DNA of 24,000 bases from Methanothermococcus thermolithotrophicus DSM 2095. Its GTDB lineage: Archaea > AGJL01 > Methanococci > Methanococcales > Methanococcaceae. Shown here in pieces: positions 8,426 through 24,000 of this stretch. The stretch lies in contig NZ_OX296583.1 of assembly GCF_946463545.1 (NCBI RefSeq), forward strand, positions 757,035 through 781,034, given 5' to 3'. Below the pieces are notes generated by a model. It saw nothing but the letters and a program-made list of their open reading frames with translations. It searched no databases and was not told the DNA's origin. Positions within the stretch are counted from its first letter, which is position 1, and each line of letters begins with the position of its first letter. Both the position numbers and the translations under genes were made by a program.

Positions 8426-8670
8426 GGCATGAGGGCTATAGCCCGCCTTCTGTAATTTCGGCGACATTCAGCTAAGCGCTAATGCTTGCACCCGTGCAGA
8501 ATGGGGCCGTTTCACCGATTCCTTAAAACTCCTCAATTTTCGGATATCATCGTCATCTGTTTTAAGGCCGTGTCGTTTCTATGCCCCATTCAATCCCTCT
8601 CGGGATTGTTGCACATAATGGGTGGGCGGAGCTTCCTCCCAATTGGATAGTCACCAGCCCTCTTGCCTGT
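8424..8670 (-). ncRNA. rnpB: RNase P RNA (compact, Methanococcales type-M-like)
   Basis: The minus strand contains GGGAGGAAGCUCCGCCCACCC (CR-I-like) and ACAGAAGGCGGGCUAUAGCCC (CR-V ACAGAA..GGC). A P1 helix forms between GGCAAGAGGGC (8657-8667) and GCCCUCAUGCC (8426-8436). The segment is GC-rich relative to its flanks and is ~245 nt long. Confidence 0.75.
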
Positions 8671-8691
8671 TGGATTGTATAAATTAAAATT

Positions 8692-8716
8692 CCATATAAC
8701 ACTCGAAAATTCGAAA
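8692..8716 (-). promoter_or_regulatory. RNase P RNA promoter: TATA (TTATAT, 8694-8699) preceded by the 14-nt box TTTCGAATTTTCGA
   Basis: The TATA centre is ~28 nt upstream of the inferred RNase P RNA 5' end. The box at 8703-8716 is identical to the one at 21431-21444. Confidence 0.55.
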
Positions 8717-8725
8717 GTAGATTGT

Positions 8726-8735
8726 AAAAATAAAA
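8726..8735 (-). terminator. Oligo-T terminator (TTTTATTTTT) after 5S rRNA
   Basis: The T-run lies directly 3' of the 5S rRNA on the minus strand. Confidence 0.6.
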
Positions 8736-8737
8736 GT

Positions 8738-8854
8738 GGCTAACGGCGTCACCCTGTTCCCACCAGATGGCAGTACTTAGGGTATCGCTGGAGGGCTTAA
8801 TTTCCGAGATCGGGACGGGATCGGATGTGGCCCCTCCGCTATGACCGTTATGCC
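8738..8854 (-). rRNA. rrf: 5S rRNA
   Basis: The minus strand reads GGCAUAACGGUCAUAGCGGAGGGGCCACAUCCGAUCCCGUCCCGAUCUCGGAAAUUAAGCCCUCCAGCGAUACC...GGGAACAGGGUGACGCCGUUAGCC, which is an archaeal 5S pattern. Ends are +/-3 nt. Confidence 0.9.
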
Positions 8855-8894
8855 AGAGAATAAAAAGTGCATAAGCCCCTTGTGTCTTTAAGTG

Positions 8895-11890
<2,996 letters not shown>

Positions 11891-11979
11891 ATATCACCAG
11901 ACACAGGGGCTTATGCACGACCTTCACTCTAAAATCCAGTCCTTCATCCATAACCTTGCGATTATGGATTGCACCTACA

Positions 11980-12052
<73 letters not shown>

Positions 12053-12104
12053 ATTATTCCTTTAAGCCCACAATCATTTGGTGCCTAGTAACGACCTTTT
12101 TTTC

Positions 12105-13575
<1,471 letters not shown>

Positions 13576-14797: not shown

Positions 14798-14883
14798 AGT
14801 ACCCCTTAACAAATATCAGATTAAAATATATTATATAATAAACATATTCATTTTTATTACTATACTATATCAAGGGGATATAA

Positions 14884-16371
14884 ATGGAAATTGGCATATT
14901 GGATATAAAAGGCTCATTGCCTTGTTTTGAGAATTTTGGAAACTTACCTACAAAGATAATCGATGAAAACAGTATTAAGGAAATTAAAGACTTAAATATG
15001 CTTATAATACCTGGAGGAAGTTTAATTGAAAGTAAATCATTAAATGATGATTTAAAAAGATATATAACTGAATTTGACGGTTATATAATTGGAATATGTA
15101 GCGGATTTCAGGTGTTGTCTGAAAAAATAGATATAGGTAGAAAAAGCCCAATTCCCATAGTTAAAGAGGGTTTAAGCCTATTAAATGTAGAATTTTCTCC
15201 ATTAATATGTACAGATAGGGTTGAATCAAGATTAGAAAATGACTCCATCTTTGGAAACGCCGGAGAATTAGGGCATGGATTTCACTGCCATACATACGGA
15301 GATATAAAAATAAAGGATGAAAAAACTAAAATACTAACAACTTCAAAAATAAAAAAACTAAATTATAAGATGGTTGGCGAAAAAGAAATAATATCCGGTG
15401 TATTCTGTAAAAATGTATATGGAACCATGGTTCACGGACTTTTAGACAATATTAACATTAAGGAAAATATATTAAAGAGTTTAAAGGTTGATGAAAACGA
15501 AAGAGAAGAAATCTATAAAAAAAATAAAGAAATTGTTGAGAAACTAAAATCTAAACGTTTGTTCAAAGATGGAGCTCCAGATGAACATGATAAATGTAGT
15601 AAATATAATAGTTCTGAGAGTGGAAAAAACGCGAAAAAAGGCATGGTACTTCTTGCCACAGGTTCTGAGAGTGGGAAAACGTTTCTTACCACAGGTTTGG
15701 TCTCAAAACTACCTGGAAAAACTTTTGTAGCTAAAATAGGGCCTGATGTAAGGGATATTGTGCCTGCACTCTATATATTGAGAGAACCTATGACTGAGTA
15801 CAGCAGCATAAAAATCGCAGATAGGGGCTGGTGTAATGTTGATGACTTCTTAAAATTTGTTAAAAATTCGGATTATAACTACTACATAGTTGAAGGAGTA
15901 ATGGGAGCATTTACTGGAGCTCTGAATAAGAGAAACTACAGTGGAGCCGAAATATCGAAACTTCTAAATTTTCCAGTATATATTGTATCATCATGTAGCA
16001 AAAGTGGGATAGAAGGGGCATTTGTAGAAAGTTTAGGTTATTATTCACTATTAAAAGAAATGGGAGTTAATGTTGAAGGTATTATACTAAATAGAGTATA
16101 TAACTTTGATATTTTTGAGAAGGTTAAGAGAATAGGGGATGAGCTCGGTGTTAAGGTTATAGGTATCCGAAAAGCAGAAAATAGCAAATCTGAAAAAAGA
16201 GGTTTAATCCCTGAAGTTGAAATTGACTATGAGGAATTTTGTAGATTGACAAATAAATTAAACATACAACTCGAAATACCGAAACTTGAATTCAATGATG
16301 TAAAAAAAGAATATAAAAGTTTTGAAGATCATTTGAAAAACTGGAGCAAAAAAATAAAGGATATTAATTAA
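14884..16371 (+). CDS. CobB/CobQ-like amidotransferase with permuted domain order (N-terminal GATase-3, C-terminal DTBS/CbiA-type P-loop domain)
   Basis: The N-terminal half has LIIPGGS...GICSGFQVL (Cys nucleophile) and [10 protein letters not shown] (His). The C-terminal half has [17 protein letters not shown] (P-loop), [16 protein letters not shown] and GIILNRV, which resemble the CbiA/CobQ ATPase domain. An AGGGGA SD is present. Confidence 0.7.
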
Positions 16372-16617
16372 TAAGGACTCTCATTATACAACGTACTCAT
16401 AGTTTCAACAAAATAACAGCCCACTACAAAATTAGCTAAGGAATAACTCTAGAATCCACCAACAACAACTTTTTTAATTAATTTTTATTTTCATTAAAAT
16501 TTAAACATTTAACAACATTCCCGCTCCTGCCCATATCACATATAAAATACATCATATAGATAATGTAACAGACATAATTATAATACCAACAACATATAAT
16601 AATAGTTCGTGATACCA

Positions 16618-18636
16618 ATGAACGAAGGTAAAATTGAGGAACTAAAACACTTAATAACCAACTATTTAAGAAATTTTCATAGTGACGACATTATTTCAGA
16701 AAATGAGAAGGTAGTTGTAGATTTAAAGAATATTTACGACTATGGGATTATAGAATTTGTAGAATTAATACATGAAAGACCAAAATTAGGATTGGAAATA
16801 TTAAAAGAATGTTACGACAATGCATACTATACCCTAAAAAACGAAACACCAAACTGTGAAATTTCCATAAAAAACTTGCCTACAATATTCAACAAATCAG
16901 GGAAAAACAAGACAATTACTATAGAAAATATAAAAAGCAATACTTTAGGAAAACTAGTTGAATTTGAAGGCGTAGTGGTTACAGCAACAAAAATAAAATC
17001 TGCATTAAAAAAAGGAGTCTATATATGCGGTTCTTGTGGGGAAAAAACAGTTATTGAAGTTGAAAATCCATTTGAGGCTTCATTTGATCCATCCTGTAAA
17101 AAATGTGGCGGTGGAAATTTAGTACTAATTGAAGAGGAATCGGAGTTCATAGACTTTCAAGAAATAAAAGTCCAACAGCCATTAGATTTGATGGACGATC
17201 CCGAAGAACCTCCAAAGTACATAACTGTTTTTCTAACAAACTCTCCAGGAATATTCTGTGGACGTGTAAAAATAATGGGGATACCTATTAAAAACCAGAA
17301 AAATAGAAAAGTACCAATTTATGACATATATATCAAAGGACTGTATTGTGAAGTCATAGAAAACAAAATAGAAACCAGATTAAGTGAAGAAGACATTGAA
17401 AACATAGAAAAAGTAGCTAAAAATCCAAAAATTATAGATATACTGTCAGATCGACTCATTCCTGAAATAAAAGGATATAATATGGTTAAAAAGGCTATAT
17501 TCTTACAACAAATAAAAGGTGTTGAAAAAGGGAATAAAAGAGCAGACAGTCACATACTTCTAATTACCGACCCGGGAATTGGAAAGACTGTCATGTTAAG
17601 AAGGATTGCAGAATTACCCGGAAATCTCTATGGTTCTGTGACGACAGCTTCAGGCGTTGGATTAACTGCAGCAGTTATAAGAGAAAAAACAGAAATTGGA
17701 GATGACACCTGGGTCATAAAGCCAGGTTTACTTGTAAAGGCAAATAAAGGTACTGCATGTATTGACGAGCTCACTGTGAATAGAGACCTTCAAAGTTTTG
17801 TATTGGAGGCAATGGAAAGTCAAACAATACACATAAGTAAAGGAGGAATAAACGCCAAATTACCATCCAAATGTGCAATACTTGCGGCATGCAACCCACG
17901 ATGGGGAAGATTTGACCCCAATGTATCCGTTGCAGAGCAAATAAATATCCCTGCGCCTATGTTGAGTAGATTTGACTTAATATTTCCAATTAGGGATGAA
18001 GCTGATAGATCAAAAGATAAAGATATTGCAGAGCACATAATAAACGTCCATAGAGCTCTATTAAACAATGAAATTGATCAGATAGGTTTAGAATACATTG
18101 AACTAGACGGCGTTAAAATTGATAAAGATTTTATAATAAAATATATATCCTACGCAAGACAGAAAGAACCTATAATATCAAAAGATGCTGAAAAGGTTTT
18201 AATAGACTACTACTTGAGTATGAGGAAAGGTGCTGTTCAAATAACTGCAAGACAGTTAGAAGCAGCAATAAGGCTCGCCGAAGCTCATGCAAAGGCCAAA
18301 TTAAAGGACGTTGTTGATGAAGAAGATGCCAGAGAAGCTATAACTATAATCACAGAATCATTAAAAGAAATTGCCTATGACCCTGAAACTGGGCAATTTG
18401 ACATTGATAAAATAGCAGGTATCTCCAAAAAAGACAGAAATAAAATGACTCATATTTATGATATTATTAAAAAACTTGCAGAAAAGAATGAAGATGGTCT
18501 AGTAATATATGAAGATATTGTTGAAGAGGCCAAATCAGAAAACATAGATGAAGAAGAAGTGGAAAATATACTTAAAAAAATGGTCAAATATGGAGATATT
18601 GACGAGCCTAAAACTGGAAAATATAGGCTCATTTAA
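16618..18636 (+). CDS. mcm: MCM replicative helicase paralog (divergent)
   Basis: The zinc finger is CGSCGEK...CKKCGG. The AAA+ core includes ITDPGIGKTVML, ACIDELTVN, IHISKGGINAKLPSKCAILAACNP, SRFDLIF and ITARQLEAAIRLAEAHAKA. The tracked ORF starts at a GTG (16609), and the first ATG is at 16618. Confidence 0.9.
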   Translation: MNEGKIEELKHLITNYLRNFHSDDIISENEKVVVDLKNIYDYGIIEFVELIHERPKLGLEILKECYDNAYYTLKNETPNCEISIKNLPTIFNKSGKNKTITIENIKSNTLGKLVEFEGVVVTATKIKSALKKGVYICGSCGEKTVIEVENPFEASFDPSCKKCGGGNLVLIEEESEFIDFQEIKVQQPLDLMDDPEEPPKYITVFLTNSPGIFCGRVKIMGIPIKNQKNRKVPIYDIYIKGLYCEVIENKIETRLSEEDIENIEKVAKNPKIIDILSDRLIPEIKGYNMVKKAIFLQQIKGVEKGNKRADSHILLITDPGIGKTVMLRRIAELPGNLYGSVTTASGVGLTAAVIREKTEIGDDTWVIKPGLLVKANKGTACIDELTVNRDLQSFVLEAMESQTIHISKGGINAKLPSKCAILAACNPRWGRFDPNVSVAEQINIPAPMLSRFDLIFPIRDEADRSKDKDIAEHIINVHRALLNNEIDQIGLEYIELDGVKIDKDFIIKYISYARQKEPIISKDAEKVLIDYYLSMRKGAVQITARQLEAAIRLAEAHAKAKLKDVVDEEDAREAITIITESLKEIAYDPETGQFDIDKIAGISKKDRNKMTHIYDIIKKLAEKNEDGLVIYEDIVEEAKSENIDEEEVENILKKMVKYGDIDEPKTGKYRLI

Positions 18637-18736: not shown

Positions 18737-19843
18737 ATGAACATGATATACAATGTGGCAGAAGATTTTTTAACTGGAGATATATGGATACTACCTACGG
18801 ACAGGGATAACCTACTAGAACTAAATGAAAATGGATGTATTAAACTAGTCAGGAATATACCTGTTTTAAGGATTTTAGCCACACCATCTATAAAAAAAAC
18901 AGTTAGTAGGTTAGCATATACAATAAAGGATAAAATGACAATGTTTAAAGGAGAAACATCAGGATGGATGAAAAATTTAATTAACTACCTCCATAAAACA
19001 TACTTCGACAAAAAGAGCAACAATTACTATAAGGCAAAAAAGGCATGGTATAGATTTATAGGAGATTTATTTAAAAATATTAGAGATTGGGAGTTTAACA
19101 AAGTAAGAGGTAAAATAATCGCACTTTTGAGAATTTTAAACCCAGTACTTGTATTCGATATCCACAATACAACAAAGTGGAATTATACTACAAGTTTTGT
19201 TAAATTCATCAAAGAATTGAAAAAAAACAATATAACCGTCGTACTAAGGTGTCCGTTCGAATCTATGGACCATGTTAAAGAACTGTTTAAAGAATCCAGA
19301 ATAAACAATATTGCAACAATTAAATACTACGGAAAAACACTCGGTCATACCATATCAGCAAAAGTTGCAAAATATTTAATCGAAATTTCGAATGGTAATT
19401 TGGATGTTATTAGATTGATACTGAAACATTCAAAAAGGGAGCTGAAATCATTGCGGGAGTTAAGGATACATTGGTTAAAAATAATACCTGAGATTGTTCC
19501 TAAAAAATATAGAAAAATTATGAAATTAGCCTGTAAACTGAAAAAATTCAATATAAAAAATATAGGCAATTATTTAAACTTCAGTTTATCCACAACCTAC
19601 AACTATATGAATGAATTGGTTGAACTGGGCCTGTTAACTAAGAGGAAAGTTAGAAAAAACGTACTATTTAAAATAAGAATTGATAAGGATTCCTTGTTGA
19701 ACGTAATAGGGAAATATAACCCCAACAACTTGCATGAGATTTTTTTAATAAATAGCAAATGTAGTAAATATGTCCAAAAAAATACGTTTTTAAAGAAAAA
19801 AGGGTTTTCTACTTTTCGAACTAAGTGTGATTATATAGAATAA
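18737..19843 (+). CDS. Hypothetical protein: apparent degenerate AAA+ (Orc1/Cdc6- or archaeal-ATPase-like) core plus C-terminal winged helix
   Basis: 368 aa. A P-loop-like but non-canonical ATPSIKKT sits at residues ~47-54, and a Walker-B-like PVLVFDIHN at ~136-144. ISNGNLDVIRLILKHS resembles a sensor-2/lid helix. The C-terminal wH reads NIKNIGNYLNFSLSTTYNYMNELVELGLLTKRKVRKNVLFKI. Confidence 0.55.
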   Translation: MNMIYNVAEDFLTGDIWILPTDRDNLLELNENGCIKLVRNIPVLRILATPSIKKTVSRLAYTIKDKMTMFKGETSGWMKNLINYLHKTYFDKKSNNYYKAKKAWYRFIGDLFKNIRDWEFNKVRGKIIALLRILNPVLVFDIHNTTKWNYTTSFVKFIKELKKNNITVVLRCPFESMDHVKELFKESRINNIATIKYYGKTLGHTISAKVAKYLIEISNGNLDVIRLILKHSKRELKSLRELRIHWLKIIPEIVPKKYRKIMKLACKLKKFNIKNIGNYLNFSLSTTYNYMNELVELGLLTKRKVRKNVLFKIRIDKDSLLNVIGKYNPNNLHEIFLINSKCSKYVQKNTFLKKKGFSTFRTKCDYIE

Positions 19844-19969
19844 TACAAAATATACAATACATAATATCAAATATGTTGAGTGTAATGTTGTGACACAGCC
19901 TTATTTTTCGAATACTACTTATGATTCATATTATAAGAAAATTATTTTGCTATTTTTTAACTTATACGA

Positions 19970-20019
19970 TTTCGAGTTTTCGAGTGTAGTGTATGTATAG
20001 AATTTTGGAAGGTATCCCC
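19970..20019 (+). repeat. Left arm of an imperfect ~50-bp inverted repeat (starts with the box TTTCGAGTTTTCGA)
   Basis: It aligns without gaps to the reverse complement of 20291-20341 at about 39 of 50 positions (hand count). Shared blocks are TTTCGRGTTTTCGA, TGTATGTATA, TTTTG.AA and GTATCC. Confidence 0.8.
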
Positions 20020-20290
20020 ATTTAGGTTTTACAAAAATTATTCCAAACGTATTCTATATGTTATTACTATTTTGATCTATAAATGTATAATATGTATAAA
20101 TAATAAACAATATGTTATAATATACACTATAGTGTGATTATACTACTAAAAACGATGTAAACAATCAATACTAATCTAGAGAAACATGTTTAATTATCAT
20201 TAAACATATTTAACAAGATGATAACTACTATGTGGTAAATACTGGATAAATTACTCTCTGTTATAATCAAAAATGCATTTTTTATTTATT

Positions 20291-20341
20291 GGTGGATACA
20301 TTTCAAAACCATATACATACATCACGTTCGAAAACCCGAAA
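20291..20341 (-). repeat. Right arm of the inverted repeat (reverse complement starts TTTCGGGTTTTCGA)
   Basis: See the left arm. The arm ends 6 nt from the stop codon of the wHTH gene at 20347. Confidence 0.8.
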
Positions 20342-20346
20342 TACTA

Positions 20347-20865
20347 TTATTTTGTAGATTGGTAATACTTTTTCAGATAGTTTATGTGCTTACATTCTTG
20401 AGATTGGCAGGATATACACCACCAAGTATCGTTTTTAGTTTTAAATACTCTCGAAACTTCTTCTCCCCTGTAGTCGTAGAATTTAAAAGTAATTCCTCCA
20501 AAATTATCGGCGAATTTTCTTATTTCAAATCCCATATTCTTTACTGGATAATACTTTGTTTCAAATTTCTTTTTCGGAAGACTTTCGAAAACACTCGAAA
20601 AACTAACGTCGAATATTTCGGGACATATTCTCTTTAATATTGATATTCCTTTCACCGTTAAGGAATATAAGACTTTATGTCTGTTTCTTTCTCTTTTAGC
20701 CACATTTAAAGCTACGCACATCCTTAAAAACTGTGAAGGTAGCCCTTTTGAAATTCGAAGGTTTTCGGATATCTGCTGGGGATAAGTTGTGCCATTAGTT
20801 AACACATAGTGTAAAATTAGTTTTCTAAATGGTGTTGAGATTATTCCTTTTACTAAGTTATCCAT
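20347..20865 (-). CDS. Small winged-HTH protein with a C-terminal Cys/His zinc knuckle (SWIM-like)
   Basis: The N-terminal wHTH reads FRKLILHYVLTNGTTYPQQISENLRISKGLPSQFLRMCVALNVAKRERNRHKVLYSLTVKG. The C-terminus WWCISCQSQECKHINYL has the spacing C-x2-C-x4-C-x-H. The tracked start (20868) is a TTG, while the ATG at 20865 has a GGTGA SD. Confidence 0.6.
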   Translation of the reverse strand: MDNLVKGIISTPFRKLILHYVLTNGTTYPQQISENLRISKGLPSQFLRMCVALNVAKRERNRHKVLYSLTVKGISILKRICPEIFDVSFSSVFESLPKKKFETKYYPVKNMGFEIRKFADNFGGITFKFYDYRGEEVSRVFKTKNDTWWCISCQSQECKHINYLKKYYQSTK

Positions 20866-21169
20866 CAAATCACCTTTTTTTAGTTATTGGGTGCTCTTTG
20901 ACTAAGATCTAATGAATATCTAATTTTTTAAACGAATATTTATCTTTAGGGTTTTTGATTCATATAACGTTTTTCGTCCAATACTAATTTACTAATAATT
21001 TTGATAGTATATATGTCTTTTTATTTGATAGTTTTTTGTTTAAAGCCAATAATTTGGATATGTTGAAAAATGTAGGGGGTATATCCGTTGTTTTAATTTT
21101 CTTATATGATACTTGATTAACTTTCAATTTTTAATATTTTATTCAAAGTTATTTTACGTTTTATGGTTA

Positions 21170-21181
21170 TATTCACAATAT
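21170..21181 (+). repeat. Partial third copy (TATTCACAATAT) of the 16-nt direct repeat
   Basis: This is a 12-nt exact match to the core of the repeats at 21322 and 21352. Confidence 0.5.
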
Positions 21182-21321
21182 ATTTTTTAGTATATAAGTA
21201 AAAAATACAATTAAAGAAAAATTTATTAAATAAGAATAATTATATATACTTTTTCTTTTTTATTAAAATAAATTTTAATTGAATTTTGAGAGTCATTTGG
21301 CTTTGTATTGTTTATATAATT

Positions 21322-21367
21322 TTTTATTCACAATATTTTTGCTATTTTATGTTTTATTCACAATATT
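21322..21367 (+). repeat. Two perfect 16-nt direct repeats, TTTTATTCACAATATT, with 30-bp phasing
   Basis: The copies lie at 21322-21337 and 21352-21367, within the 680-bp non-coding spacer upstream of the Orc1/Cdc6-like gene. Confidence 0.8.
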
Positions 21368-21430
21368 ATTGCATAGTAAATAATTTATATAGTTATATCT
21401 ATAAATATTTTTAGATGTTAAATTTTAGAT

Positions 21431-21458
21431 TTTCGAATTTTCGAAAAGTATAAAAAAG
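21431..21458 (+). promoter_or_regulatory. Box TTTCGAATTTTCGA followed by the TATA-like GTATAAAAAAG: probable promoter of the Orc1/Cdc6-like gene
   Basis: The 14-mer and its close spacing to a TATA (about 3-4 nt) match the inferred RNase P RNA promoter. It lies ~90-115 nt upstream of the ATG at 21547. Confidence 0.5.
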
Positions 21459-21489
21459 TTGATAATGCAATTATCTAATTATTATTTTA

Positions 21490-21510
21490 AAATTTTCAAA
21501 TTGAAAATTT
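21490..21510. promoter_or_regulatory. Perfect 21-bp palindrome AAATTTTCAA-A-TTGAAAATTT
   Basis: The arms are 10 bp each and the centre is at 21500. It sits between the putative TATA and the RBS (GGTGG at 21538-21542) of the Orc1/Cdc6-like gene. Confidence 0.55.
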
Positions 21511-21546
21511 GCACTAGGACGCTTCTTTTTAATTTATGGTGGTATT

Positions 21547-22773
21547 ATGTTGGACCCTATTGAATTTATATACAATTCATCATCTATAACAAGAAAAGCG
21601 ATGAATAGATTGAAACTAAAAACAAATCCTTTTTCGGAAAAACCTATTAGGGGAAATACTAAGTTTTTCGTAGGTAGAACTTCAGAGCTGAAAGAAATTG
21701 CCGACATATTGGGTGCAGCTCAGTATGGAAGTATAGCTAACGCTGCCATTGTAGGTACAAAAGGTATTGGTAAGAGCTCTATACTCAACATATTGTACTA
21801 TGCTGCAAAAAGAAAGGGTTATTGGGTAGTGGAGCTCGAGGCCTCGCAAGTTACTCCCAGGCAATTTTTAATCCAGTTAATGTATGGTATTATTAAGGAT
21901 AATTTATTTTCAATAGATGGTACTTTATCAACGGATTATATGGAACATTCCCAAAGAATTATTGAAATATATAGGCGACTGAACAACTATAGCGATAAAA
22001 CACCGGTTCACTATCCAAGGGAAAAAATAGAAAGGGATTTGGATTATCTATTGACAAATGTGAGGGAAGAAGGAAAGTTATGTATAATAACAATAGATGA
22101 GGCAGACCAATTTGCTAAAAAAAGCTGTCTAAGCCTTTTACAGTTCTTTCATTCATTCCTCTATGAAGATGGAATTTTAGTATTTTTTGCAGGTTCTCCT
22201 ACATTAATGGAGGGTTTAACAAAAGTATCTCCTGCAATGAAGGATAGAATACCTAAGGTAATAAACATGCCTCCACTCCTAAAAGAAGAAGCTTATGATT
22301 TAATTAAAAGACGATTGGAAGATGCTCACACAGTTAAAGCAGGAGATTATGAGCCATTTACCGATGCTGCAATTGATAAAATAGTTGAAGAGTGCGATGG
22401 AATCCCAAGAAAGATAATAATGACTTGTTCTGAGGCAATATCTATAGCTATGAAAAAAGGAATGGATAAAATAGATGAAGACATAGTTAGAATGGCAATG
22501 AAAAAACTAGGTATTAGTGTAGGTCATCAAATATTAAATCATTTAACACCTGCCCAATCTAAAATAGTTCAAGCACTTGCGGATTTGGGCGGCAGTTCAA
22601 CAGTAACTGAGTTAGCTAGAATTTTAAACAACTCTCCTGGAACTATTGGAACTCATTTATCGGATATTTATGAAATGGGGTATGTATATAAAGAAAGAGT
22701 GGGTAATAATGTATATTACTCATTATCAAAGGAACTAACAGAGGTTCTAATCAATGAAGATGAAGAAAATTAA
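21547..22773 (+). CDS. Divergent Orc1/Cdc6-like AAA+ ATPase with C-terminal winged helix
   Basis: The N-terminal motif is PFSEKPI....FVGRTSELKEIADIL. Walker A is GTKGIGKSS, Walker B is CIITIDEADQF, and the sensor-2-like motif is CDGIPRKII. The C-terminal wH reads SKIVQALADLGGSSTVTELARILNNSPGTIGTHLSDIYEMGYVYKERVGNNVYYSL. A GGTGG SD is present. Confidence 0.75.
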   Translation: MLDPIEFIYNSSSITRKAMNRLKLKTNPFSEKPIRGNTKFFVGRTSELKEIADILGAAQYGSIANAAIVGTKGIGKSSILNILYYAAKRKGYWVVELEASQVTPRQFLIQLMYGIIKDNLFSIDGTLSTDYMEHSQRIIEIYRRLNNYSDKTPVHYPREKIERDLDYLLTNVREEGKLCIITIDEADQFAKKSCLSLLQFFHSFLYEDGILVFFAGSPTLMEGLTKVSPAMKDRIPKVINMPPLLKEEAYDLIKRRLEDAHTVKAGDYEPFTDAAIDKIVEECDGIPRKIIMTCSEAISIAMKKGMDKIDEDIVRMAMKKLGISVGHQILNHLTPAQSKIVQALADLGGSSTVTELARILNNSPGTIGTHLSDIYEMGYVYKERVGNNVYYSLSKELTEVLINEDEEN

Positions 22774-22854: not shown

Positions 22855-23799
22855 ATGTTGTTTTGTGATGTTCAAGCTACTGAACCTGATATTAAAGTCT
22901 CACTTACAAGGGTCGGTGTAACCAACCTAAAAAAACTTGTAAAAATAAAAAGAAAAGCAAAAAGGCCCATAGTACTTTTGCCCACTTTTGAAGTCTTTGT
23001 TGATTTGCCAAGTTCCCAAAAGGGAATACATATGTCCAGGAGCCCCGAGGTAATAGAGGAAATTATTGAAAATATAATTATCGAAAAAGATGTGTATGGT
23101 CTTGAAGAACTTTCCGTAGATATTGTAACAAAATTGTTTGAAAAACATGAGTATGCAAACAGGGCAGAAGTTCTCATATATGGGGACTATATGATGGAAG
23201 AAAAATCTCCAGTAACGGAAAAAAAATCCCAAGAAATATGTAAAATAATTGCCAGAGCATATGGTATAAAAAAAGATGGCAAAATAAACATTAAAAAAAT
23301 GGTTGGGGCAGAAGTTGTAGGAATGACTGCATGCCCTTGTGCCCAAAATCTTTTAAAGGAAAAGGCTGTGAAAAATCTGAAAGATCAAGGATTTTCAGAT
23401 GAAGATATTAAAAAAATAATGAGCTCGGTAGTCATAGCAACCCACAATCAAAGAGGGATAGGTACTGTAATGATCGAAGTACCTCATGGTTACGATGTTG
23501 GAATTTCAAATATAATTGAAATAATAAAGAAGTCAATGAGTGGAGAAGTATATGAACTTCTAAAGAGAAGTGATGAAGCTTATGTTGTAGAAACTGCCCA
23601 TAATAATCCTAAATTTGTTGAAGATTGTGCCAGAGAAATGATTAAAAGAGTCGTAGATGAATTTAGCTATCTTCCGGATGATACTCAAGTTTTAGTAAGG
23701 CAAGTAAATAAGGAAAGTATTCATAGGCATGATGCATTTGCAGAAAGGTTTTCGACAATGGGTGAGCTAAGGGAAGAATTATCTAAAACACACAAATAG
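22855..23799 (+). CDS. mptA: GTP cyclohydrolase MptA (FolE2/MptA family, type IV)
   Basis: Family motifs are present: DVQ...P.....LTRVGV, LPSSQKGIHMSRS, MTACPCAQ, ATHNQRGIG and FVEDCAREM. An AAGGTGG SD is present. Confidence 0.85.
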   Translation: MLFCDVQATEPDIKVSLTRVGVTNLKKLVKIKRKAKRPIVLLPTFEVFVDLPSSQKGIHMSRSPEVIEEIIENIIIEKDVYGLEELSVDIVTKLFEKHEYANRAEVLIYGDYMMEEKSPVTEKKSQEICKIIARAYGIKKDGKINIKKMVGAEVVGMTACPCAQNLLKEKAVKNLKDQGFSDEDIKKIMSSVVIATHNQRGIGTVMIEVPHGYDVGISNIIEIIKKSMSGEVYELLKRSDEAYVVETAHNNPKFVEDCAREMIKRVVDEFSYLPDDTQVLVRQVNKESIHRHDAFAERFSTMGELREELSKTHK

Positions 23800-23805
23800 T
23801 TAAAC

Positions 23806-24000
23806 TCGACGAAAATCAAAGATTTTTGTGAATCGACATCGAAGCAAATCTTCGATTTGCTGTCGAAGCGAATCCAAAGGATTCGCTGACTTACGAAAAC
23901 CTGAAAGGTTTTCGTTAAGACTCACAAAATCTGAAGGATTTTGTCTAGAATTCCAAGGAAATTTGTCTCGATCAGCAAATCACCAACTTCGTTGGTGAGC
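23806..24000. other. Array of six perfect, sequence-distinct short hairpins/dyads plus one imperfect dyad, truncated by the window edge
   Basis: The hairpins are 23809-23829 (ACGAAAATC/AAA/GATTTTTGT, one G-T pair), 23843-23861 (AGCAAATC/TTC/GATTTGCT), 23867-23887 (AGCGAATCC/AAA/GGATTCGCT) and 23893-23915 (ACGAAAACC/TGAAA/GGTTTTCGT). They continue with 23924-23944 (ACAAAATC/TGAAG/GATTTTGT) and 23980-23998 (TCACCAAC/TTC/GTTGGTGA). A weak dyad lies around 23949-23964. Confidence 0.8.

Follow-up and report, generated by a model that had tools for sequence, protein, structure and literature searches.

Characterised archaeal origins of replication, such as oriC of Pyrococcus abyssi and oriC1 and oriC2 of Sulfolobus, occupy an AT-rich intergenic region beside an initiator gene, with recognition boxes placed around an easily melted stretch. 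The promoter of the initiator gene overlaps one class of box in the characterised orc1/cdc6-adjacent origins, and where archaea have more than one origin, as in Sulfolobus and the haloarchaea, the initiator that recognises an origin is encoded next to it. Initiation is least understood in the Methanococcales and Methanopyrales, which have no canonical Orc1/Cdc6 and no experimentally tested origin. Reviews have called replication initiation in methanogens of this group an intriguing unknown (PMC3984812). The MJ0774 protein of M. jannaschii was described as a distant Cdc6 homologue and an adjacent origin was proposed by Z-curve analysis only (PMC3531139, PMC4009838), a proposal that was later flagged as not validated (PMC5333045). 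DoriC 5.0 and later papers named this family Mc-pRIP and predicted an "Mc-pRIP-adjacent" oriC in 11-14 Methanococcales genomes, including those of M. okinawensis and M. aeolicus (PMC3531139, PMC4009838), and Ori-Finder 2 assigned to the Methanococcaceae the origin recognition box (ORB) motif TT[TA][GT]ATTCA[TC][GA]AT[AT]T[AT]T[AT] (PMC4164010, Table 1). Here, we examine a window of 24,000 nucleotides (nt) from Methanothermococcus thermolithotrophicus DSM 2095 (contig NZ_OX296583.1, positions 757,035 to 781,034), in which an initial annotation, made without database searches, had singled out the spacer upstream of an Mc-pRIP gene as a candidate oriC. Judged by its sequence, this was a correct rediscovery of the Mc-pRIP-adjacent oriC known in silico, that is, of a predicted origin. 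Newly added are the fixed geometry of a five-box array, its all-direct orientation, a central TATA palindrome, a second module in the neighboring spacer and the loss of initiator adjacency in one Methanocaldococcus assembly, with a similar absence in M. indicus. This comparative anatomy sharpens the existing prediction to five fixed boxes, a 100-bp candidate melting site, an inverted-repeat module and three candidate binders.

Comparison of orthologous loci firmly identifies the spacer as a strongly constrained, predicted protein-binding scaffold within a conserved module of ~1.75 kb. It extends from the start of a minus-strand 172/173-aa gene (20865/20868) to the ATG at 21547 and has orthologues of 564-854 bp ahead of the Mc-pRIP gene throughout the Methanococcales. 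The description of a gene-free, extremely AT-rich spacer of ~680 bp was borne out, as its GC content is 18.7%, versus about 30-35% in the flanking genes, and the longest open reading frames (ORFs) within it encode 47 aa and 42 aa (the latter at 21286-21414). Its length was correctly considered unusual, the other gene-to-gene spacers of the window being <=250 bp, apart from the 503-bp spacer on the far side of the 173-aa gene, referred to below as the left spacer. The downstream gene had been read as Orc1/Cdc6-like and as being followed by mptA, and AAA_16/ATPase_2 and HTH_5 domains and a TIGR00294 match agree with this reading. The stated correspondence of this pair to MJ0774/MJ0775 was also right (PMC3531139, PMC4009838), and an MJ0774-type gene followed by mptA is present in the Methanocaldococcus loci.

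Two perfect 16-mers, TTTTATTCACAATATT, had been reported at 21322 and 21352, 30 bp apart, together with a 12-nt partial copy at 21170 (TATTCACAATAT). All three exist, the partial copy being part of the box called A2 below, and the 16-mer proved to be the published Methanococcaceae ORB motif. This motif occurs in the window at 21167 and 21322 without mismatch, at 21352 with one mismatch and at 21137 with three, and no copy with <=1 mismatch was found elsewhere in the 24 kb. In the fetched Methanococcales loci it was found in orthologous spacers only, and always on the strand by which most loci encode the initiator. The spacer adjoins an MJ0774-type gene (AAA+ plus HTH_5) and contains copies of the family ORB motif, two of the features by which Mc-pRIP-adjacent oriCs are recognised. 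It is orthologous to these predicted origins and shares with them the initiator-like gene followed by mptA, the long AT-rich spacer and the exact motif; nothing essential differs. A 16-nt exact repeat was also attained in 20 of 1000 dinucleotide-preserving shuffles of the spacer. Because the repeat is by itself only modestly unusual in so AT-rich a sequence, the case rests on conservation.

Orthologous loci were compared from Methanothermococcus (Ax23, SCGC AD-155), Methanococcus aeolicus, M. maripaludis, M. voltae, Methanotorris igneus, several Methanocaldococcus genomes and metagenome-assembled genomes. Alignment of the spacers corresponding to the candidate oriC (right spacers) revealed five boxes with the core KATTCAY, without exception on the plus strand; the ATTCA cores of the window begin at 20958, 21141, 21171, 21326 and 21356. 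The initial count of repeats was therefore real for three copies but had missed two boxes (20958, 21141) and a conserved central TATA block. The 14 loci measured, drawn from four genera (Methanococcus, Methanothermococcus, Methanotorris and Methanocaldococcus), have gaps between successive boxes of 180-186, 30-31, 147-157 (mostly 156) and 30-31 bp. Box core, strand and spacing recur in every orthologous spacer examined, and each array position retains its own box variant; box A1, for example, is ATTCATAG in nearly every genus. It had been stated at the outset that absence or lack of conservation of the 16-mer in orthologous spacers would count against an origin. The opposite is clearly the case, the motif being present in every orthologous spacer examined, and conservation of boxes in the orthologous regions of related genomes, which is expected of an archaeal origin, extends to the 14 loci of four genera. 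In Methanocaldococcus, the central block lies 9-10 bp farther from A2 and 7-8 bp nearer B1 than in Methanococcus, and because the indels on either side of the TATA core compensate, the A2-to-B1 distance is kept at 156 bp. Such compensating indels are direct evidence that the A2-B1 distance itself is under selection. Other elements of the initial description fared differently. The TTTCGAATTTTCGA box at 21431 is present as reported. The duplicate TTTGATAGT at 21000 and 21024 exists in the window but is not conserved in orthologous spacers, and the palindrome at 21490-21510, which has a central A, is real but not conserved in other genera; both are probably incidental and were dropped from the model.

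The block between A2 and B1 is common to all genera over ~75 bp and reads AATT.AAA..AAcTTTATT, then (G/A)ATAGTTTATATAT, then TTTTATTAAAGTTTATTT. Its two 43-nt arms, which are 77% complementary, make the block an imperfect palindrome. By nearest-neighbor free energy, the least stable 100 bp of the window are 21178-21277, and the least stable 100-bp and 200-bp stretches fall between or around the box pairs, so that an AT-rich, easily unwound element of the kind expected in archaeal origins is found at 21178-21277. The central block is thus a candidate unwinding element and/or a candidate promoter. Conservation is lowest downstream of the TATA box, where indels also occur. Two other kinds of element were considered here and rejected: a structured RNA, as RNAalifold predicted no base pairs in an 11-genome alignment of the array and an Rfam search returned no significant match (one near E = 1, far under the gathering score, lay inside the 173-aa gene), and a small conserved ORF, as those of 42 and 47 aa are unconserved.

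Natural rearrangements separate the array from the initiator gene. In M. indicus (SL43), 24 bp separate the initiator-like gene from the unrelated gene that precedes it, and neither boxes nor the 36x-aa and 17x-aa genes that normally accompany the array were found within 6 kb of it. On contig 112 of GCA_054025895.1 (Methanocaldococcus sp.), an unrelated gene lies 6 bp ahead of the initiator-like gene, mptA follows it and no boxes are present; contig 142 carries the 345-aa gene, a left spacer with the inverted repeat described below (arms 5973, 6337), the 175-aa gene and a right spacer of 564 bp. This right spacer retains the central TATA box and has its five boxes spaced at 185/31/156/31 bp, and the next gene encodes an F420-ligase. 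In the two rearranged genomes, the Orc-like gene occurs with or without mptA. Only the promoter-proximal double box, also described below, moved with the initiator gene in GCA_054025895.1. Because the array stays where the initiator gene has left, it is not the promoter or leader of that gene. What is kept together as a unit comprises the array, the two upstream genes and the left spacer, and adjacency to the Orc-like gene is not obligatory for the array. The rearrangement indicates that selection keeps the cis elements together, not their adjacency to the initiator gene, and origin finders that rely on initiator adjacency would miss or misplace the site in GCA_054025895.1 and probably also in M. 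indicus. A scan of metagenome contigs for the box pair returned 120 loci, of which two were orthologous and the others chance matches; the pattern was too loose, and the scan is uninformative about sites elsewhere in the genomes of Methanococcales.

The left spacer carries a different motif in a different arrangement. In the window, a 32-bp repeat, TTTCGrGTTTTCGA-N5-ATGTATGTATA, has arms at 19970-20001 (plus strand) and 20310-20341 (minus strand), flanking about 310 bp. This inverted repeat (consensus TTTCGAGTTTTCGAGTTGCATGTATGTATATG) was found in the left spacer of every locus, with arms 346-375 bp apart (mostly 356-364) that enclose unconserved AT-rich DNA. Shorter, 14-bp copies of the double box lie outside each arm and point inward. 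The outer one, on the plus strand at 19806, is 163-166 bp left of the arm and falls at the 3' end of the 36x-aa gene, and the inner one (20585-20600, minus strand) is in frame inside the 17x-aa coding sequence as TTTCGAGTGTTTTCGA, with the Ser codon TCG. TCG represents 6.6% of Ser codons in the genes of the window, and its use in TTTCGAGTGTTTTCGA suggests a constraint at the DNA level inside the 173-aa coding sequence. The distances in the left spacer (arms ~360 bp apart; mini-box to arm 163-166 bp) are conserved almost as strictly as the geometry of the right spacer. The window contains 14 copies of TTTTCGA where 5.3 are expected, nine of them within 19813-21447, and the TTTCGA motif is a second system, independent of the ORB-type boxes. 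In predicted layout, the left spacer is a better match than the right one to the classical arrangement of inverted boxes around an unwinding element, with the mini-boxes as satellites. Viral contigs scanned for the 32-bp repeat gave no matches.

A further double box, TTTCGAATTTTCGA, precedes a TATA-like element in the right spacer itself, and most loci retaining the Orc-like gene have it 53-255 bp ahead of the ATG. From its position, this element is the probable proximal promoter of the Orc-like gene, and the overlap of the initiator promoter with one class of box is as in the characterised orc1/cdc6-adjacent origins. The double box is not exclusive to the locus, because the same arrangement precedes the RNase P RNA gene: TTTCGAATTTTCGA at 8703-8716 (minus strand), between the 5S rRNA gene and RNase P RNA, stands directly upstream of a TATA-like TTATATGG and ~33 bp before the RNase P RNA gene. 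The TTTCGA double box may be a promoter-type element resembling the transcription factor B recognition element (BRE).

The gene order of the window is rRNA operon and RNase P RNA (minus strand, 8427-13575), potassium channel, cobyrinic-acid diamide synthase, minichromosome maintenance (MCM) helicase and 368-aa gene, followed by the 503-bp spacer, the 173-aa gene (minus strand), the 680-bp spacer, the 408-aa AAA+/HTH_5 gene and mptA. The order of 36x-aa gene, spacer, 17x-aa gene (minus strand), spacer, Orc-like gene and mptA is common to nearly all loci. No paper was found to mention the locus tags of the neighboring genes. Coordinates are collected in the following table.

Features of the candidate initiation locus of M. 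thermolithotrophicus DSM 2095, in window positions
Feature	Position	Strand	Description
MCM helicase gene	16609..18636	+	syntenic in Methanococcus, Methanothermococcus and Methanotorris (immediately upstream)
368-aa protein	18737..19843	+	Methanococcales only; predicted Orc1/Cdc6-like fold; P-loop equivalent degenerate (TPSIKKT)
Left spacer	19844..20346	.	503 bp; 32-bp inverted repeat round AT-rich DNA
173-aa protein	20347..20868	-	N-terminal winged helix and C-terminal CxxCx4CxH
oriC-candidate (right) spacer	20866..21546	.	18.7% GC; no ORF >=60 aa
Box 1	20954..20971	+	ATTCA core at 20958; 183 bp before A1; ~90 bp upstream of 173-aa gene start
Box A1	21137..21154	+	ATTCAAAG in window; degenerate copy of ORB motif, 3 mismatches
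Box A2	21167..21184	+	published ORB motif, 0 mismatches; 30 bp after A1
Central block	21202..21287	.	AATTAAAG..TTTATT, then TATA box TATATATA (21241-21248), then TTTTATTAAA
Box B1	21322..21339	+	ORB motif, 0 mismatches; 155 bp after A2 (156 in most loci)
Box B2	21352..21369	+	ORB motif, 1 mismatch; 30 bp after B1
Double box TTTCGAATTTTCGA, then TATA-like GTATAAAAAA	21431..21458	+	conserved 53-255 bp upstream of ATG
Palindrome with 10-bp arms	21490..21510	.	window genome; unconserved elsewhere
Mc-pRIP, 408 aa	21547..22773	+	divergent Orc1/Cdc6-like AAA+ ATPase with C-terminal ArsR-type winged helix
mptA (GTP cyclohydrolase MptA)	22855..23799	+	TIGR00294, E 1e-129

Mc-pRIP contains AAA_16 (E 5e-10), ATPase_2, AAA_22 and HTH_5 domains and is 71-83% identical to Methanococcales proteins named ArsR-family or Cdc6-like; an identical protein is listed at NCBI under "Methanothermococcus sp." Its Walker A (GTKGIGKS) and Walker B (IDEADQ) motifs are invariant in 16 homologues, as expected of an Orc1/Cdc6-type AAA+ protein. 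It falls outside the curated Orc1/Cdc6 family, its match to TIGR02928 (orc1/cdc6) being below threshold (E 9e-10, 37.9 bits vs a cut-off of 181.3) and its C-terminal domain being HTH_5, not the Cdc6 winged helix; its best AAA+ profile match in the PDB is Drosophila Cdc6, at an E of 0.096 only. A mobile-element source for this initiator-like protein was rejected, as the phage collection yielded no match and plasmids only remote AAA matches, and as synteny with housekeeping genes holds order-wide.

The family of the 368-aa protein gave 13 matches among 1.84 billion representatives, all confined to the Methanococcales, and its members are annotated merely as helix-turn-helix or ArsR-family proteins. 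Its AlphaFold model (predicted local distance difference test [pLDDT] 80, predicted TM-score [pTM] 0.75) best matches, at low TM-scores, Sulfolobus solfataricus Cdc6/Orc1 on origin DNA (2qby_A, E 7.6e-5), followed by origin recognition complex (ORC) subunits, Apaf-1 and A. pernix ORC1, likewise at low TM-scores. The C-terminal winged helices of the 368-aa protein and Mc-pRIP are homologous (hhalign E 9e-6). With moderate confidence, the former is taken to be a probable paralogue of Orc type that has degenerated, possibly a second one that had gone unrecognised. In the 173-aa protein, a winged helix of ArsR/MarR type is accompanied by an invariant C-terminal WWC..CQS..C.H (CxxCx4CxH), which is probably zinc-binding. 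Its structural model is poor (pLDDT 58), and all fold matches have an E above 0.03.

We give roughly even chances to the reading that the spacer, as the Methanothermococcus orthologue of the Mc-pRIP-adjacent oriC, forms one half of a two-part initiation locus at 19.8-21.55 kb. The locus as a whole is likely to be an origin; whether the spacer takes a direct part in it is about evenly balanced. A two-part origin is considered the most likely reading because the MCM gene and two Orc-like genes lie nearby and the core melts with extreme ease, and also because the array is independent of the adjacent promoter and skew evidence has been published for M. jannaschii. In the mechanism envisaged, the paired boxes would be occupied by a winged-helix protein that the locus itself encodes, the candidates being Mc-pRIP, the 368-aa protein of degenerate Orc type and the 173-aa protein. 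With three helical turns between the boxes of a pair, the proteins would line up along a single face of the DNA to either side of the AT-rich TATA core. They would distort and open this core, and the MCM helicase, encoded 3 kb upstream, would be loaded there. The TTTCGA double box beside the initiator TATA box would couple expression of the initiator to the same set of sites, and these sites would also make up the inverted 32-bp pair that encloses the AT-rich core in the left spacer.

The candidate oriC of the initial annotation thus gains the published ORB motif, a conserved array and an easily melted core, but its boxes are all direct and initiator adjacency is not obligatory. The accompanying suggestion that the two spacers are halves of one origin gains weight from the inverted ORB/DNA unwinding element (DUE)/ORB layout of the left spacer, but the motif there differs. 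More tentatively, and at present doubtfully, the origin may be an inseparable module and more than an Orc-like gene and its neighboring spacer. It would consist of two lineage-specific DNA-binding proteins (the degenerate Orc-fold protein and the winged-helix/zinc protein) and two cis arrays (the inverted 32-bp pair around an AT-rich core and the five-box direct array around a TATA palindrome), with the initiator ATPase acting in trans on both and promoter-type (BRE/TATA-like) elements built into the origin machinery.

Several observations weigh against a part for the spacer in initiation. All five boxes point in the same direction, unlike the inverted ORBs around the unwinding elements of characterised archaeal origins; inverted boxes on both sides of an unwinding element were not found in the right spacer, and an inverted ORB/DUE/ORB-type layout is seen in the left spacer with a different motif. 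Canonical ORBs possess a TCCA..GGAAA dyad and a G-string (PMC4164010, Table 1), both of which the box of the spacer lacks. In this respect and in its direct boxes, the locus departs from the P. abyssi and Sulfolobus origins, as it does in the ArsR-type HTH_5 domain with which Mc-pRIP would bind DNA in place of a Cdc6 winged helix, and in its two distinct motif families in two adjacent spacers. The canonical TATA box with symmetric flanks at the center of the array could be a plain promoter, and the binders of each motif (Mc-pRIP, the 368-aa and the 173-aa proteins) are candidates only. Origin activity has been shown experimentally in no member of the Methanococcales, and among methanogens, according to reviews, only in Methanothermobacter (PMC5333045, PMC3984812); Z-curve analysis of M. 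maripaludis was reported to be inconclusive (PMC3984812). Finally, the local cumulative GC skew changes sign with gene orientation at ~14.8 kb and not at the spacer. Skew and orientation switch 5-6 kb left of the candidate origin, at a 72-bp AT-rich gap (about 14812-14884) that separates the minus-strand potassium channel gene from the plus-strand cobyrinic-acid diamide synthase gene. This switch probably reflects transcription direction only, and local GC skew was rejected as an origin locator, as it tracks gene orientation and is uninformative over 24 kb.

If the locus is an origin, unwinding and helicase loading may instead occur in the left spacer (19970-20341), with the right spacer as an auxiliary or regulatory array whose role might be to regulate the divergent 173-aa and initiator genes or to license firing. 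We regard this as rather unlikely, even though the TTTCGAGTTTTCGAGTTGCATGTATGTATATG inverted pair in all loci has the classical ORB/DUE/ORB layout, inward-pointing short copies accompany it at 19806 (plus strand) and 20585 (minus strand, in-gene, with the rare TCG codon), and the left spacer adjoins the Orc-fold 368-aa protein and persists when the initiator gene is translocated. The double box, which is also present upstream of RNase P RNA and beside the TATA box of the initiator gene, may be a promoter element, the left AT-rich core melts less easily than the center of the right spacer, and both the published ORB motif and the DoriC predictions indicate the right spacer. The juxtaposition of two initiator-like paralogues, the 368-aa protein and Mc-pRIP, each adjoining a long spacer with its own repeated motif, is reminiscent of archaea with several origins. 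Here, in contrast, the two spacers are 520 bp apart and always linked, and the Orc-likeness of the 368-aa protein derives from a predicted fold with low TM-scores.

A region devoted to transcription control, without an origin, would likewise explain direct repeats, which are found in many operator arrays: arrays of winged-helix operators would lie upstream of the 173-aa gene, on either side of a central promoter that may be bidirectional, and the regulator would be the 173-aa protein or Mc-pRIP acting on itself. The canonical TTTATATA at the exact center, with inverted AAACTTTA/TAAAGTTT flanks at start-site-like distances, is consistent with such a promoter, as are the ArsR/MarR-type winged-helix proteins encoded by both flanking genes and the retention of the array by the 173-aa gene after the departure of the initiator gene; Methanococcales origins, moreover, remain undemonstrated (PMC3984812). 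This explanation nevertheless appears improbable, as both genes have proximal TATA-like elements of their own and the array reaches ~490 bp upstream of the 173-aa gene. A 400-bp geometry kept to the base pair in four genera through compensating indels goes far beyond ordinary archaeal promoters, and the genomic context comprises MCM and two Orc-like proteins. Phased direct-repeat clusters on both sides of a promoter core also characterise the parC-type sites of plasmid R1 and iteron arrays, and a small winged-helix adaptor bound to such clusters could make the array a centromere-like segregation site. AspA and TubR, which are partition proteins, do occur beside many ArsR/MarR regulators in the weak fold matches of the 173-aa protein, but these matches come from the poor model (pLDDT 58) and all have an E above 0.03. 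In most genomes the locus lacks a gene for a ParA/SegA-type ATPase, and the site differs from parC of R1 in being chromosomal, conserved across the order and without a partition ATPase gene at the locus; a segregation site is very improbable. Still less credible, and close to dismissal, is that the conserved sequence encodes a small RNA or protein. The central TATA could drive a transcript, and the 42-aa ORF follows at 21286-21414, but the lack of predicted base pairs in 11 genomes and of a significant Rfam match, the poor conservation and indels downstream of the TATA and the unconserved small ORFs all argue against it.

One further element was noted at the edge of the window. Within ~270 nt downstream of mptA (window 23800-24000 and off its end), some nine short hairpins are set in a long closing stem. 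The element had no Rfam match at E <= 1 and was not found in other genera; a full copy is present at L010:11955-12235, in the same species only, and it is expanded in one assembly. Its minimum free energy is -105.9 kcal/mol, versus -59.9 +/- 4.9 for shuffled sequences (z = -9.4).

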